A DNA stretch of 64,000 nt from Escherichia coli. GTDB lineage: Bacteria > Pseudomonadota > Gammaproteobacteria > Enterobacterales > Enterobacteriaceae. Where the stretch lies: the NCBI RefSeq assembly GCF_044647545.1, contig NZ_CP172818.1, one strand, 5' to 3'. Each line of letters starts with the position of its first letter. The first letter of the stretch is position 1. Shown here in pieces: positions 6,122 to 43,442 of the stretch. Made by a program: the position numbers and the translations under genes. The notes beneath the pieces were generated by a model. That model searched no databases, was not told the origin of the DNA, and saw nothing but the letters and a program-made list of their open reading frames with translations.

Positions 6122-6151
6122 TTAGTTACTGCAGTAGAGGTTTTTACGGCT

Positions 6152-15193: not shown

Positions 15194-17134
15194 TTAAACC
15201 GAGTATCTTTGTGAATATTTTTTCACGTTAGTATCAAGTGGCTGTGAGGACGCGAAAAAATCCCCTTGCCCACCTGTAACACCGCGCTGAATCAGGGTCT
15301 GCCACTCGCTTCGCGAACGCACGCCGGTGGCGTAAACCTGGGTGCTGGTCCCGGAGCAGGCTTCCACCAGGCTTTGAACCAGCAGCTGGTTCTCCGTTCG
15401 CTTCTCAATGTTTCTGACCAGCCCCGGATGGAGCTTGAGTAACTCAACATTAAGTTCTTTGATCCAACTGGTGCTTACCAGCGTCAAACCAGCCTGGTTG
15501 ACGGCTACCCGTACCCCTAAAGCATTCACTAAACGAATAACAGGTTGTAAGCGACTGATATGTTGACCAACATCGGCCTCTGCAAGTTCAATAATTATGC
15601 GTCTTCGTTGCGATTTTTCACATTGCATTAACGTATCGCGCAGCCAACGCTGAAAACGCGGGCGAATCAGCGACTCAACGGTAACCTGAATCGCCAGATT
15701 TTCCTCTGGCCAGTAACGCAATAGTGGAATAAGACGGCTGATTAGCAGGCGGTCATACTCTTCCGATAAACCAAACTGCAAGACCATCGGCATATACTCT
15801 GCCGAGCTAACCTCTTCATTACCATCGAAGATGCGGCACATGAGTTCACGATGATGAACCCGGCCTTCGCGAGTAACCGCCGGTTTTTGATAAAGGCGCG
15901 GGCCGCCGCGACTCAGCATTTGCTCGATAAGCGTACGCCAGCGAACATTACCGCGTCCTTTTTCAGGCAACGAGTCATCGTAAATAGCCCAGCTATTGCC
16001 GCCCTGCAATCCCGCATTACGCGTGGCAGACTCTGCATGTTCCATTACCTGCTCGGTATCCTGACCACTACGCCAGGCACAGATACCAATGTGGATCATA
16101 TCGTCGCGATCGAGCATTTTATTGTTCGGCAAGGTATCGACGGCTTTGATTAACTGACTGGCGATGCTCTCTGCCTCTTTTAACGTTCGGTGCGGTAACA
16201 GCGCAGCAAAATCACTGCGGTGGTAACGCGCCAGCAGTGCGCCAGGGTAGCGCATCATAAATGTCGATAGCAGATTCGTCAGAGAGAAGAACTGTTCTTC
16301 AACCTGGCTGTGCCCCCAGGTATCACTCAACATATTGAAATCCGGCAGACGAATCATCATCACGATCCCGTGGGTACCTACTTTCTCTTGATCTTCCAGT
16401 AACGTTGCTAACTGATTATCGAAAAAGAGGCGGTTATTGAGGCCGGTTTTCATGTCCTGGGCGGCATAAGAGCGGATCAGCGTATCAAGACGGCTGTGTT
16501 GTTCGCGTGCGTTCTGAATTTCACAAAGCAGCGTATCCAGCGCACTGCTGGTTCTGGGCGGCCATTCATAGATGGTTCCCAACACATTAGAGCCACGCTC
16601 ACCGTTTAAGATACGAGTAGCCCGGGTTTCCAGCAATTCTTGCCCGGCAAGTTGCCGTTGTAACCAGCGTACCGCCAGGAAGAGCATAAGAATGATAAAG
16701 CCAATCGCCCCCGTGAGCGGCGCGGTAGTCATTAAAGAATGGAAATAGTTGCCCATCGGATCCTGATAAACCAGACGCAGCGACATCCCCGGATGCTTTA
16801 TCAACGGAACGCTCAGTTCACGAAATAGATCGTTGGTGCCAACCGGACGATAACTACCATTTCTGGCCAGGGTATAAACCTGTTTATCACCATGCAGCAG
16901 GTCTACACGAACGATATCTGCTGACATCATTAATTCGGTAATTTGTGGCCTTAATGCGCTGAAGTCATTCGACACAAGATGGGTATCAATCGCCGTCGCC
17001 ACCGCCTGAACACGATGACTAAACTTATACTGAATGGCGTTGTAGAAACTTAGCGAACAGCCCAACAAAGTCACAAAAATTGTTAACCCGGTGAGCAGCG
17101 TAACAAAGGCCGAAAATTTCGTCGTTAATCTCAT
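15194..17134 (-). CDS. csrD: CsrB/CsrC decay regulator CsrD (degenerate GGDEF-EAL protein)
   Basis: 646 aa ORF; two N-terminal TM segments then GGDEF/EAL-like domains. Confidence 0.9.
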   Translation of the reverse strand: MRLTTKFSAFVTLLTGLTIFVTLLGCSLSFYNAIQYKFSHRVQAVATAIDTHLVSNDFSALRPQITELMMSADIVRVDLLHGDKQVYTLARNGSYRPVGTNDLFRELSVPLIKHPGMSLRLVYQDPMGNYFHSLMTTAPLTGAIGFIILMLFLAVRWLQRQLAGQELLETRATRILNGERGSNVLGTIYEWPPRTSSALDTLLCEIQNAREQHSRLDTLIRSYAAQDMKTGLNNRLFFDNQLATLLEDQEKVGTHGIVMMIRLPDFNMLSDTWGHSQVEEQFFSLTNLLSTFMMRYPGALLARYHRSDFAALLPHRTLKEAESIASQLIKAVDTLPNNKMLDRDDMIHIGICAWRSGQDTEQVMEHAESATRNAGLQGGNSWAIYDDSLPEKGRGNVRWRTLIEQMLSRGGPRLYQKPAVTREGRVHHRELMCRIFDGNEEVSSAEYMPMVLQFGLSEEYDRLLISRLIPLLRYWPEENLAIQVTVESLIRPRFQRWLRDTLMQCEKSQRRRIIIELAEADVGQHISRLQPVIRLVNALGVRVAVNQAGLTLVSTSWIKELNVELLKLHPGLVRNIEKRTENQLLVQSLVEACSGTSTQVYATGVRSRSEWQTLIQRGVTGGQGDFFASSQPLDTNVKKYSQRYSV

Positions 17135-17285
17135 CCTTGTGTTAACTCCGATAGTGAGGAAGCGGGCATACTAGCAAATCAGATTTATCTCGCAATTTAT
17201 TGCGCTTCATCGGCTTTGCTTTTCCATTAGCGAGTATAGTCTTCAGAAATTATTTTCCAATCCATCATGCACATGAGGACCACTT

Positions 17286-18260
17286 ATGCAGGCGTTACTT
17301 TTAGAACAGCAGGACGGCAAAACTCTCGTATCGGTACAGACACTGGACGAAAGTCGCCTGCCGGAGGGCGATGTCACGGTTGATGTTCACTGGTCGAGCC
17401 TGAACTACAAAGATGCGCTGGCAATTACCGGTAAGGGAAAAATCATCCGTAATTTTCCGATGATTCCTGGGATCGATTTTGCCGGAACTGTACGCACCAG
17501 CGAAGATCCGCGTTTTCATGCCGGTCAGGACGTATTACTCACTGGCTGGGGCGTTGGTGAAAACCACTGGGGTGGGCTGGCGGAACAGGCGCGAGTGAAA
17601 GGTGACTGGCTGGTTGCCATGCCACAAGGGCTGGACGCGCGTAAAGCAATGATTATCGGTACTGCCGGTTTTACCGCCATGCTGTGTGTGATGGCGCTGG
17701 AAGATGCCGGTGTTCGCCCGCAGGATGGGGAGATTGTCGTGACGGGTGCCAGTGGTGGCGTCGGCAGTACCGCCGTGGCGCTGCTGCATAAGTTGGGTTA
17801 TCAGGTCGTTGCCGTTTCCGGTCGCGAAAGTACCCATGAATATCTGAAAAGTTTAGGTGCCAGCCGTATTCTCCCTCGCGATGAGTTTGCCGAATCCCGT
17901 CCTCTGGAAAAACAAGTCTGGGCAGGGGCAATTGACACCGTTGGCGACAAAGTGCTGGCAAAAGTGCTGGCGCAAATGAATTACGGCGGCTGCGTGGCGG
18001 CCTGTGGTCTGGCGGGTGGTTTTACTCTGCCAACCACGGTCATGCCATTTATTCTGCGTAATGTCCGTTTACAGGGGGTAGATTCAGTGATGACGCCACC
18101 AGCACGCCGCGCACAAGCCTGGCAGCGACTGGTCGCCGATTTACCGGAATCATTCTATACCCAGGCGGCAAAAGAGATATCTCTGGCAGATGCACCGAAG
18201 TTTGCCGAGGCCATCATTAATAACCAGATCCAGGGTCGCACGCTGGTGAAGGTTAACTAA
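17286..18260 (+). CDS. acuI: acrylyl-CoA reductase AcuI (YhdH), MDR-family oxidoreductase
   Basis: 324 aa ORF; GASGGVGS nucleotide-binding motif. Confidence 0.9.
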   Translation: MQALLLEQQDGKTLVSVQTLDESRLPEGDVTVDVHWSSLNYKDALAITGKGKIIRNFPMIPGIDFAGTVRTSEDPRFHAGQDVLLTGWGVGENHWGGLAEQARVKGDWLVAMPQGLDARKAMIIGTAGFTAMLCVMALEDAGVRPQDGEIVVTGASGGVGSTAVALLHKLGYQVVAVSGRESTHEYLKSLGASRILPRDEFAESRPLEKQVWAGAIDTVGDKVLAKVLAQMNYGGCVAACGLAGGFTLPTTVMPFILRNVRLQGVDSVMTPPARRAQAWQRLVADLPESFYTQAAKEISLADAPKFAEAIINNQIQGRTLVKVN

Positions 18261-18683
18261 CCATTTAGCAAGGATTAATAAGAGAGGGAACTCATTTTGA
18301 AATCATTATTCAATCGGTTAACGGGAAAAGCGGTTAGCCGGACAGCTTTCGTCGAACATCTTGGTCATGAAGTTGTACAACATCATCCAAACTGGAAAGT
18401 CATGATTTCGACTGACCATAAATTGATGCGCATTGATACTCACCAAACGGTAAATCACTCTTGATGATCTACAAATAACAAAAATAATATAAAAAAAACA
18501 TTTAAAAAAAAAAACGCCTCGCTGGATTTTGCCTGGGAAGACTTAACGATGAGTTAATTATCTTGTTTGCTGAAGATGGTAGCGAAACCATGCGCTATCT
18601 GATGCGCTACGAAGTGACCATTGACCGCGAACAAGCCATCAATAATTTGAAGCAAATATTGCCGGAAGTTTCGGCTGAAATCG

Positions 18684-19400
18684 TTGATACAGGCGCAAAC
18701 GCTGGAAAATTTGCCGTTATCTCCCCAGGGGTCTTTAGACCCCCCTCTTGTTCCTTTTACCTTTTCGCCAACCCCCCCCCAAATTTTTATCCCCCCCCCC
18801 AAAAAAAATTTTTTTTCCCCACAAAAAAAACCACCCAAAACCCCACCCATAATAAAAAAAAAAAAAAAAAATTCCCCCCTGCAAGAACCACCCCTCCAAA
18901 AAAAAAAATTTATCCCCCCCAAACTCTCTTTTCCCCGGAAAAAACCCTTCATCAACCCACCCCCCCAGATAAAAAAAATTGGGGATGATGGTAAAAATTC
19001 AAAAACACCAAACGCCTTTCCCCAAAAATTTTTTTTTTTTTTTAGCGAAAAAATCAAAAAACAAAAAAACGCACTGCCGCCTGACAAAACAGTTTACCTT
19101 CTGCAAAATGGGGGGAATAATCTGATTTTATTTGATTACAAATTAACCACTTAAACCTATTTCATACTGAGCATTATCAGTCGGTTGATTTTGCGTGCTT
19201 TAGCATTCACATCTATCCAGACGATGCAGTGAAAATTGGGCAATCCCCAGCAACCGCTGCGTAATGTCGTCTATCTTGTCGCGATCCTGGCATCCCTACA
19301 TTATTTGTGGTCTGTGAAGATTATCTCATTGCAGCCCCTCATCTTCGCAGGGCTGGCTTTACAGCTTTTCACCTTACGTTATAAGAAGTTCCGTCGATGA
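18684..19400 (+). pseudogene. disrupted MsrQ/YedZ-like membrane protein reading frame; in-frame stops at 19152 (TAA) and 19230 (TGA); 5' two-thirds is low-complexity sequence
   Basis: One frame translates ...[101 protein letters not shown], resembling the MsrQ C-terminal half as recalled from memory. Confidence 0.3.
18740..19130. repeat. homopolymer-dominated, G-poor low-complexity tract (probable assembly or sequencing artefact, or synthetic filler)
   Basis: Runs include A18, T16, A12, C10, C9; very few G on the top strand; complexity degrades gradually from both flanks. Confidence 0.8.
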
Positions 19401-19804
19401 TGGCGCTAATTTCGTGAATTGTGCGGCTTGTTGCAAATTACACGGTGTTGAAGGTTATTTACATGTTAGCTGTTGATTATCTTCCCTGATAAGACCAGTA
19501 TTTAGCTGCCAATTGCTACGAAATCGTTATAATGTGCGACCTCGTCCTCCCTGACGCAGTTTTTGCGCTGCGGAAAAGGTGACATTGGCGCAACGAAGGT
19601 ATATTTTGTTTTTTGCCGGAGGATAGCAGCAGATCGCTGCACAATGTCCGTCAAGTCTAACATTGACACTCTGGGGCAAAATAGACCGGCGTCCCGGCCT
19701 GCTGGAATTTATCGCTATGCATACAGCTGTCGGGGCATACGCTTTACAGACGGCGGTGAAACGCCTGTCACAATCACACTAAACAAAGAGTACGGAACCC
19801 ACTC

Positions 19805-20275
19805 ATGGATATTCGTAAGATTAAAAAACTGATCGAGCTGGTTGAAGAATCAGGCATCTCCGAACTGGAAATTTCTGAAGGCGAAGAGTCAGTACGCATT
19901 AGCCGTGCAGCTCCTGCCGCAAGTTTCCCTGTGATGCAACAAGCTTACGCTGCACCAATGATGCAGCAGCCAGCTCAATCTAACGCAGCCGCTCCGGCGA
20001 CCGTTCCTTCAATGGAAGCGCCAGCAGCAGCGGAAATCAGTGGTCACATCGTACGTTCCCCGATGGTTGGTACTTTCTACCGCACCCCAAGCCCGGACGC
20101 AAAAGCGTTCATCGAAGTGGGTCAGAAAGTCAACGTGGGCGATACCCTGTGCATCGTTGAAGCCATGAAAATGATGAACCAGATCGAAGCAGACAAATCC
20201 GGTACTGTGAAAGCAATTCTGGTCGAAAGTGGACAACCGGTAGAATTTGACGAGCCGCTGGTCGTCATCGAGTAA
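19805..20275 (+). CDS. accB: biotin carboxyl carrier protein of acetyl-CoA carboxylase
   Basis: 156 aa; [28 protein letters not shown]...; biotinylation motif [10 protein letters not shown]. Confidence 0.97.
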
Positions 20276-20285
20276 CGAGGCGAAC

Positions 20286-21635
20286 ATGCTGGATAAAATT
20301 GTTATTGCCAACCGCGGCGAGATTGCATTGCGTATTCTTCGTGCCTGTAAAGAACTGGGCATCAAGACTGTCGCTGTGCACTCCAGCGCGGATCGCGATC
20401 TAAAACACGTATTACTGGCAGATGAAACGGTCTGTATCGGCCCTGCTCCGTCAGTAAAAAGTTATCTGAACATCCCGGCAATCATCAGCGCCGCTGAAAT
20501 CACCGGCGCAGTAGCAATCCATCCGGGCTACGGCTTCCTCTCCGAGAACGCCAACTTTGCCGAGCAGGTTGAGCGCTCCGGCTTTATCTTCATTGGCCCG
20601 AAAGCAGAAACCATTCGCCTGATGGGCGACAAAGTATCCGCAATCGCGGCGATGAAAAAAGCGGGCGTTCCTTGCGTACCGGGTTCTGACGGCCCGCTGG
20701 GCGACGATATGGATAAAAACCGCGCCATTGCTAAACGCATTGGTTATCCGGTAATTATCAAAGCCTCCGGCGGCGGCGGCGGTCGCGGTATGCGCGTAGT
20801 GCGCGGCGACGCTGAACTGGCACAATCCATCTCCATGACCCGTGCGGAAGCGAAAGCTGCTTTCAGCAACGATATGGTTTACATGGAGAAATACCTGGAA
20901 AATCCTCGCCACGTCGAGATTCAGGTACTGGCTGACGGTCAGGGCAACGCTATCTATCTGGCGGAACGTGACTGCTCCATGCAGCGCCGCCACCAGAAAG
21001 TGGTCGAAGAAGCACCAGCACCGGGCATTACCCCGGAACTGCGTCGCTACATCGGCGAACGTTGCGCTAAAGCATGTGTTGATATCGGCTATCGCGGTGC
21101 AGGTACTTTCGAGTTCCTGTTCGAAAATGGCGAGTTCTATTTCATCGAAATGAACACCCGTATTCAGGTAGAACACCCGGTTACTGAAATGATCACCGGC
21201 GTTGACCTGATCAAAGAACAGCTGCGTATCGCTGCCGGTCAACCGCTGTCGATCAAGCAAGAAGAAGTTCACGTTCGCGGCCATGCGGTAGAGTGCCGTA
21301 TCAACGCCGAAGATCCGAACACCTTCCTGCCAAGTCCGGGCAAAATCACCCGTTTCCATGCACCTGGCGGTTTTGGCGTGCGTTGGGAGTCTCATATCTA
21401 CGCGGGCTACACCGTACCGCCGTACTATGACTCAATGATCGGTAAGCTGATTTGCTACGGTGAAAACCGTGACGTGGCGATTGCCCGCATGAAGAATGCG
21501 CTGCAGGAACTGATCATCGACGGTATCAAAACCAACGTTGATCTGCAGATCCGCATCATGAATGACGAGAACTTCCAGCATGGTGGCACTAACATCCACT
21601 ATCTGGAGAAAAAACTCGGTCTTCAGGAAAAATAA
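20286..21635 (+). CDS. accC: biotin carboxylase subunit of acetyl-CoA carboxylase
   Basis: 449 aa from [29 protein letters not shown]; track ORF starts further upstream, overlapping accB. Confidence 0.97.
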
Positions 21636-21651
21636 GACTGCAAAAGCGCTC

Positions 21652-21679
21652 AAAAGGCCGGATTTTCCGGCCTTTTTTA
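21652..21679 (+). terminator. rho-independent terminator after accC
   Basis: aaaaggccggattttccggcctttttt: GC stem followed by a T-run. Confidence 0.8.
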
Positions 21680-21743
21680 TTACTGGGGATTGATATCTAC
21701 ATAAGGTACAATCCTCGTTCTCTTCACCCATCAGGGACAAAAA

Positions 21744-21986
21744 ATGGACACTCGTTTTGTTCAGGCCCATAAAGAGGCGCGCTGGGCGCTGGGGCTGACC
21801 CTTTTGTATCTGGCGGTATGGTTAGTAGCCGCTTACTTACCTGGCGTTACCCCCGGTTTTACCGGCTTTCCACGCTGGTTTGAGATGGCTTGCATCCTGA
21901 CGCCGCTGCTGTTTATTGGACTGTGCTGGGCGATGGTGAAATTTATCTATCGCGATATCCCGCTGGAGGATGACGATGCAGCTTGA
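21744..21986 (+). CDS. yhdT: small inner-membrane protein YhdT
   Basis: 80 aa hydrophobic ORF overlapping the panF start. Confidence 0.8.
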   Translation: MDTRFVQAHKEARWALGLTLLYLAVWLVAAYLPGVTPGFTGFPRWFEMACILTPLLFIGLCWAMVKFIYRDIPLEDDDAA

Positions 21987-43257: not shown

Positions 43258-43295
43258 GGCGCATTATAGGGATCCCATTTTTTTGCACAAGTACT
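43258..43295 (-). promoter_or_regulatory. rrnD P1 promoter with upstream A/T-rich UP element and Fis region
   Basis: Reverse strand TTGTGC -35 (43285-43290) and TATAAT -10 (43263-43268), 16 bp spacer, GCGC discriminator; A/T tracts continue to about 43400. Confidence 0.75.
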
Positions 43296-43442
43296 TTTTT
43301 GATCTTTTTTTCTGTTTGTTGTTTTTTCACCCTTTTTGCTGCATTTGCACACAAAACGGTGCTTTTTTGCATACTAAAAGACTTGCACAAGGCCAATAAT
43401 GCACCCAAAGTCATTAGTAAATCATTTATTGTTGAGGTAAGT

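Follow-up and report, generated by a model that had tools for sequence, protein, structure and literature searches.

The window, by which we mean the whole stretch of 64,000 nucleotides of E. coli chromosome that was analyzed, carries the gene order csrD, acuI, a 1.5-kb interval, accB and accC. Of 5426 complete E. coli genomes, the closest to the window is FDAARGOS_497; coordinates in its acuI-accB locus are prefixed L001 below. The features of the interval and of the two genes that flank it are the following, all coordinates being those of the window unless stated otherwise.

17286 to 18260, plus strand: acuI (acrylyl-CoA reductase), the upstream flank; a 324-aa ORF that matches the annotated acuI of FDAARGOS_497 with 100% identity
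18297 to 18439, plus strand: codons 1-48 of a DUF1444-like gene, undamaged, within the exact block 18200-18439 (L001 1501-1740)
18440 to 18512, no strand assigned: garbled tract 1, 73 A/T-rich bases in place of 214 bp, DUF1444-like codons ~49-119
18513 to 18709, plus strand: DUF1444-like codons ~120-185, in exact blocks, the translation matching ...FAEDGSETMRYLMRYEVTIDREQAINNLKQILPEVSAEIVDTGANAGK...
18684 to 19154, plus strand: low-complexity ORF of 156 aa that runs through garbled tract 2
18710 to 19069, no strand assigned: garbled tract 2 (the 'homopolymer tract'), 360 G-poor bases in place of 406 bp
~19002 to 19081, plus strand: msrP 5' relic, codons ~6-35, with coordinates inferred from alignment (L001 2483-2570)
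19098 to 19409, plus strand: msrQ (yedZ) pseudogene relic, MsrQ residues ~97-199 of 199, by profile, tblastn and alignment
19805 to 20275, plus strand: accB, the downstream flank; a 156-aa ORF identical to annotated accB

Outside the garbled tracts the window and FDAARGOS_497 differ by 0 substitutions over ~40 kb and by a handful of small indels, and across the interval the two are exactly identical in the blocks 18200-18439, 18513-18544, 18545-18709 (after a 1-bp deletion) and 19070-19810. The remaining differences in the ~40 kb, all of them small indels, are a 2-bp loss at 6141 in the tldD-yhdP spacer, three single-C losses at 37610-37614 immediately past yhdZ, one additional C at 38338 in a C-run within 23S rRNA, and a 1-bp loss at 18544/18545 in a T-run within the DUF1444-like gene. 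Being indels only, these differences point to consensus errors, with rRNA operon copy variation as a possible alternative for the indel at 38338. Further downstream, the accC-yhdT spacer of the window (21636-21744) measures 109 bp, which is the K-12-type length, and FDAARGOS_497 has 8.7 kb in place of this spacer (L085 21885-30565), encoding a sugar ABC transporter, kinases, a tagatose-bisphosphate-type aldolase and a DeoR regulator. This island difference indicates that the source strain is a close relative of FDAARGOS_497 with a different genome. The adenine-specific DNA methyltransferase gene yhdJ (26022-26906) has an in-frame stop at codon 71 in the window, and it is annotated in FDAARGOS_497 as a pseudogene with an internal stop.

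The msrQ relic upstream of accB

In MsrPQ, a methionine-sulfoxide reductase of the periplasm, the membrane subunit with haem b is MsrQ, or YedZ. A reading made from the sequence alone had proposed that an MsrQ/YedZ-like protein is encoded, in disrupted form, by one forward frame that spans the homopolymer tract. The resemblance is borne out for the C-terminal ~100 codons and fails for the tract part, since the homology starts at 19098. The conceptual translation of 19089-19397 matches the NCBIfam MsrQ model NF003831 with an E value of 2.6e-17 over profile positions 105-193 of 212, with a score of 63 bits that lies below the curated whole-protein cutoff of 130. When the intact syntenic MsrQ of Escherichia sp. 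E1V33 was used as a tblastn query, its residues 97-193 were found at window positions 19098-19388 with 66% identity (E 3e-31). Protein alignment of the relic with intact MsrQ gives 64-66% identity, and the two have in common the LRYKKFR motif and the same natural stop.

The relic contains in-frame stops at 19152 (TAA), 19230 (TGA) and 19398 (TGA, from TGG). The intact C-terminus reads KKFRQWWR* and that of the window KKFRR*WR*, which identifies the TGA at 19398 as a third premature stop and the TAA at 19407-19409 as the ancestral stop. A full-length uninterrupted MsrQ ORF (~199-211 aa) is absent at the relic, and tblastn gave no match to MsrQ residues 1-96 anywhere in the window or in the FDAARGOS_497 locus L001. 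A tblastn search of the window for an adjacent, co-oriented msrP gave no MsrP match, the best E value being 2.3. Among the conserved transmembrane-helix histidines of MsrQ, which we take to be the haem ligands, the protein alignment shows His164 kept, His151 replaced by Arg and the His91 region missing.

With the 103-aa conceptual translation, Pfam-A returned DUF2391 as its sole hit (E 0.0098) and no PF01794; longer homologues obtained through a word-indexed protein search do carry PF01794. That search, from which the stop-free relic (P0001) and the E. coli MsrQ fragments were taken, returned mainly pieces of the relic and of E. coli MsrQ, and no full-length proteins. A search of solved-structure sequences with the relic gave chance ion-channel matches (E 0.23), which were discarded. 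Compared with MsrQ/YedZ (NF003831; PF01794, the ferric-reductase-like transmembrane family), the relic is alike in sequence and in its position upstream of accB, and differs in that it comprises the C-terminal half only, has three in-frame stops and the His151Arg replacement, and has no adjoining msrP. Judged by sequence comparison, its homology to MsrQ is real but that of a fragment. The stretch 19098-19409 is a dead, decayed msrQ pseudogene of the C-terminal half and not a working member of the family.

The acuI-accB relic interval was matched in 5425 of the 5426 complete E. coli genomes, with a relic identity of 95-99%. The window's own copy (19070-19810) is 100% identical to FDAARGOS_497 and ~95-97% identical to the other haplotypes. 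In some genomes PGAP annotates the relic as a pseudogene, under the names MsrQ, sulfoxide reductase heme-binding subunit YedZ or cytochrome b family protein; the fullest name, 'protein-methionine-sulfoxide reductase heme-binding subunit MsrQ', is found at the same place in locus L002 (2587-2889). In many other records, including a K-12-like genome and FDAARGOS_497, the relic is unannotated. The PGAP pseudogene of the E. coli acuI-accB spacer has the same locus and sequence and is, without difference, the relic itself, so the earlier suggestion of an undescribed paralogue does not hold. The comparison with the K-12 spacer that was proposed at the same time came out positively: the K-12-type acuI-accB spacer has the same relic, with ~85% amino acid identity to the stop-free version. 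The disruptions vary by haplotype, the copy in 25POL being annotated as frameshifted with internal stops and that of K-12 being without the TAA at 19152. The relic is thus a known, species-wide annotated pseudogene, which is ordinary and nothing new; a full-text literature search found no paper that describes the acuI-accB msrQ relic.

The presence of the relic in all but one of these genomes, at such high identity, could also be read as retention for a function. The 54-codon ORF that starts with TTG (19236-19400), which is open and has two predicted hydrophobic stretches, would then be a small membrane protein, or the DNA would serve the upstream region of accBC. Within-species identity, however, needs no selection for retention, and the stops and frameshifts differ between haplotypes (25POL, K-12). 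The partner msrP is gone and a conserved histidine is lost, a search of 17000-20500 against Rfam matched no family, and the relic ends 395 bp before accB. We regard a retained function as very unlikely.

The DUF1444-like gene and the msrP remnant

Directly after acuI, 667 of the 5426 complete E. coli genomes, including FDAARGOS_497 (CDS at L001 1598-2428), have a gene of 831 bp that encodes a 276-aa protein (WP_000838294.1 / WP_000838295.1). PGAP names it 'hypothetical protein' or 'DUF1444 domain-containing', depending on the record. We call it DUF1444-like, as both family matches are weak: Pfam DUF1444 (PF07285) matches residues 29-270 to model positions 15-254 of 264 with an E value of 0.025, and the NCBIfam model PRK13668 gives an E value of 2.5e-4 and 20.7 bits, against a cutoff of 221. 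K-12-type and B2-type E. coli have retained no more of this gene than a 143-bp stub (nt 1-143).

The gene is present in the window as two legible pieces. The piece at 18297-18439 lies in the first exact block, and the piece at 18513-18709 is made up of two exact blocks (18513-18544, equal to L001 1955-1986, and 18545-18709, equal to L001 1988-2152) that are separated by a 1-bp deletion (TTT to TT) at 18544/18545, which shifts the frame. Compared with the gene for WP_000838294.1/WP_000838295.1, these pieces are identical except for that deletion, while the rest is unreadable in the two garbled stretches. An msrP remnant had been suspected at 18261-18683; tblastn found none there, these positions being occupied by the 5' part of the DUF1444-like gene.

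A remnant of msrP does lie further downstream. In FDAARGOS_497, L001 2483-2570 is identical to msrP of E1V33 (L005 2796-2884) at 67 of 88 nucleotides, with a local score of 58 where shuffled sequences reached at most 31, and there are weak tblastn matches to MsrP residues 6-41. The window gives just the final 12 bases of it (19070-19081) correctly, and the rest is legible in intact relatives. This ~88-bp relic is flanked by the DUF1444-like gene on one side and the msrQ relic on the other, and is unannotated in both L001 and L002.

The two garbled tracts

At 18200-19810 the window is covered to at most 77% by any record among the 5426 genomes, and the best contiguous 12-kb matches are all 188 bp longer than the window. 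The net length changes are -141 bp in tract 1 and -46 bp in tract 2. The true content under tract 2 is DUF1444-like codons 186-276 with the stop, followed by a 130-bp spacer that includes most of the msrP 5' relic. Both tracts retain a collinear similarity to the true sequence that exceeds that of run-order shuffles (z 8.6 for tract 1 and 13.7 for tract 2); in tract 2, 69% of the window bases match collinearly, compared with 53% for shuffles. Similarity of this kind marks the tracts as degraded copies of that sequence rather than as DNA that was inserted. The sequence-only reading had likewise taken the tract for a corruption of real sequence and not an insertion, which these z values uphold; its description of the corruption as of the substitution type needs amending, since 141 and 46 bp were lost on balance.

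The errors have a marked pattern. Tract 1 opens with deletions of GGG, GG and G/C. Among the aligned true bases, 91% of A, 80% of C, 69% of T and 34% of G are retained, and G is also the base most often deleted. Of 100 mismatches, 74 repeat the base just before them. Tract 2 contains 6.5% G, and its GC skew falls to -0.9. The two tracts, ~0.4 kb in all, hold 19 of the 86 homopolymer runs of at least 6 bases in the window, including A18, T15, A11 and C10. A second homopolymer-rich spot, at 43276-43375, was considered as a further garbled stretch and rejected, as it is ordinary T-rich intergenic DNA near an rRNA operon.

This composition bears directly on the frame from 18684 to 19400 in which the resemblance to MsrQ had been noticed. 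On translation we obtained the same peptide, with internal stops solely at 19152 (TAA) and 19230 (TGA) and the terminal TGA at 19398-19400. It is conceivable that this frame represents a single disrupted msrQ, with the tract as its substitution-corrupted N-terminal half: no stop interrupts the frame between 18684 and 19152, it passes in phase into the MsrQ-like part, and real sequence does underlie the tract in corrupted form. The otherwise identical relative, however, has DUF1444-like codons 186-276, the spacer and the msrP relic at this place, so the tract overlies these features and is not the 5' part of msrQ as had been claimed. MsrQ homology begins only at 19098, residues 1-96 being unmatched in the window and in L001. 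Relative to the sequence it stands for, the tract has a net loss of 46 bp, and because 46 is not a multiple of 3 no reading phase is carried through it. Nor does the preservation of the frame across the tract, to which weight had been given, go beyond chance. Inside 18710-19069 two of the six frames have 0 stops and the others 3-7, where the true sequence has 3-9 per frame, and other long ORFs run through the tract just as open, one of 177 aa on the minus strand (18554-19087) and one of 141 aa on the plus strand (18563-18988). The apparent continuity arises because the composition of the tract is stop-poor. The translations of the 177-, 141- and 156-aa ORFs are of low complexity and rich in P, K, F and G, and these ORFs are spurious; the tract translation matched no family in NCBIfam. 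At 18684-18709 the frame differs in phase from that of the real gene, which reads ...ILPEVSAEIVDTGANAGK... there. We give a single msrQ across 18684-19400 a probability close to negligible; the interval contains three distinct things that are linked by chance in a single frame.

What remains to be explained is how the tracts came about. The strand-asymmetric, neighbour-copying and indel-rich pattern, confined to 0.43 kb within a substitution-free 40 kb, fits a consensus or base-calling failure. Judging from the sequence pattern, the tracts are most likely errors of assembly, consensus or base calling and not biology. Under this explanation 18440-18512 and 18710-19069 would have been mis-read, G being dropped or replaced and bases being smeared into the neighbouring homopolymer. 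This verdict is based on comparison with other genomes, the source genome lying outside the 5426-genome collection.

For the same reason, and because the 8.7-kb island sets the strain apart from FDAARGOS_497, the strain could carry a private change, and the tracts could be genuine DNA in which local hypermutation or scrambling, or replacement by foreign simple sequence, has inactivated the DUF1444-like gene. Several observations speak against it. There are 0 substitutions in the ~40 kb of flanks, compared with ~30% mismatches plus indels within the 0.43 kb; on one strand G is either deleted or turned into A, C or T, and 74% of the mismatches duplicate the base just before; long runs (A18, T15 and C10, for instance) cluster here alone; and the tracts occur in 0 of the 5426 genomes. 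The version with foreign DNA is excluded by the collinear residual similarity. Hypermutation of the tract by a DGR-type or deaminase-type mechanism is ruled out by the error spectrum: DGR mutagenesis acts on A, and a deaminase produces transitions of one type. We know of no mutational process that gives the spectrum of the tracts. Genuine strain DNA in any of these forms is in our judgment highly improbable, and it is extremely unlikely that both G-depleted stretches record a sharply localised scrambling of a ~0.6-kb lineage-specific segment in an otherwise substitution-free genome. We are highly confident in the account as a whole, which comprises a dead msrQ relic, a DUF1444-like gene with an msrP relic upstream of the msrQ relic, and two stretches that were mis-read in the record.

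Tract 1 starts at the exact base (18439/18440; L001 1740/1741) where the majority K-12-type haplotype stops matching, and tract 2 ends 38 bp before the haplotypes resume matching (19108). Taken together, these limits place the damage within a segment that about 88% of E. coli genomes lack. The onset at the K-12-type breakpoint may point to some processing step that was guided by a reference or by homology, which we offer as conjecture.

The finding matters mainly for quality control, and in practice it means that 18440-19069 deserves a quality flag. A gene caller that was run on this record would call spurious low-complexity 'proteins' (177 aa on the minus strand; 141 and 156 aa on the plus strand) and would miss the real 276-aa gene.

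Ancestral position of msrPQ and a proposed history of the locus

Our comparison set was a scan of one genome per species, which gave 80 loci with an intact msrQ, Salmonella not being among them. In 76 of the 80 species loci accB lies directly downstream of msrQ, and 57 have acuI upstream at a distance of no more than 4 kb. These loci include those of Citrobacter, Klebsiella, Raoultella, Enterobacter, Kosakonia, Buttiauxella, Erwinia and Pantoea, and of three cryptic Escherichia lineages; msrPQ is intact between acuI and accB in Citrobacter, Klebsiella, Enterobacter, Kosakonia, Erwinia, Pantoea and the cryptic clades. One of these loci, that of Escherichia sp. E1V33 (L005), has the order acuI, msrP (334 aa), msrQ (199 aa) and accB, and its syntenic msrQ is 78% identical in nucleotide sequence to the relic. 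The order acuI-msrP-msrQ-accB of the intact loci indicates that this is the ancestral arrangement and that the E. coli relic is a positional orthologue. The second alternative raised from the sequence, a locus arrangement like that of Salmonella, was right in kind, and the relic lies at the ancestral site.

A near-full-length annotated msrQ is found elsewhere in 5410 of the 5426 E. coli genomes, with a median of 2 matching places per genome, and the working MsrQ of E. coli has 92-93% protein identity to the syntenic MsrQ of the cryptic clades. With a working msrQ at another locus the relic is redundant. Such a redundant relic would decay neutrally at the ancestral position, and the copy in the window would by this process have come to be without residues 1-96, with three premature stops and with His151 changed to Arg. 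E. coli sensu stricto has at the ancestral site a dead msrQ, joined in one haplotype by a dead msrP 5' end, and it has a working msrPQ elsewhere, while the cryptic Escherichia clades and most of the other sampled Enterobacterales still have msrPQ at the ancestral site. This is a routine story of gene relocation and pseudogene formation, and it opens no new question.

The haplotypes of E. coli differ in what they have kept of the interval. The DUF1444-bearing haplotype consists of acuI, the DUF1444-like gene, msrP codons ~6-35, msrQ codons ~97-199 and accB; the K-12/B2 haplotype consists of acuI, DUF1444 codons 1-48, msrQ codons ~69-199 and accB. Since each haplotype keeps parts that are missing from the other, two independent deletions are the simplest account. 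We infer, from the alignment of five haplotypes, a common ancestor with the order acuI-DUF1444-msrP-msrQ-accB, in which two different internal deletions would have given rise to the two E. coli haplotypes.

The working MsrQ of E. coli has a C-terminal extension (...SLFNRLRKQVHNKLSV) that is missing from the relic and from the MsrQ encoded between acuI and accB in the cryptic clades (L005-L007). The MsrQ of Escherichia sp. MOD1-EC7003 (L041), a locus with no acuI or accB within 4 kb of msrQ, aligns to the working copy of E. coli through the entire tail. The distribution of this tail may give a clue to when msrPQ was relocated.
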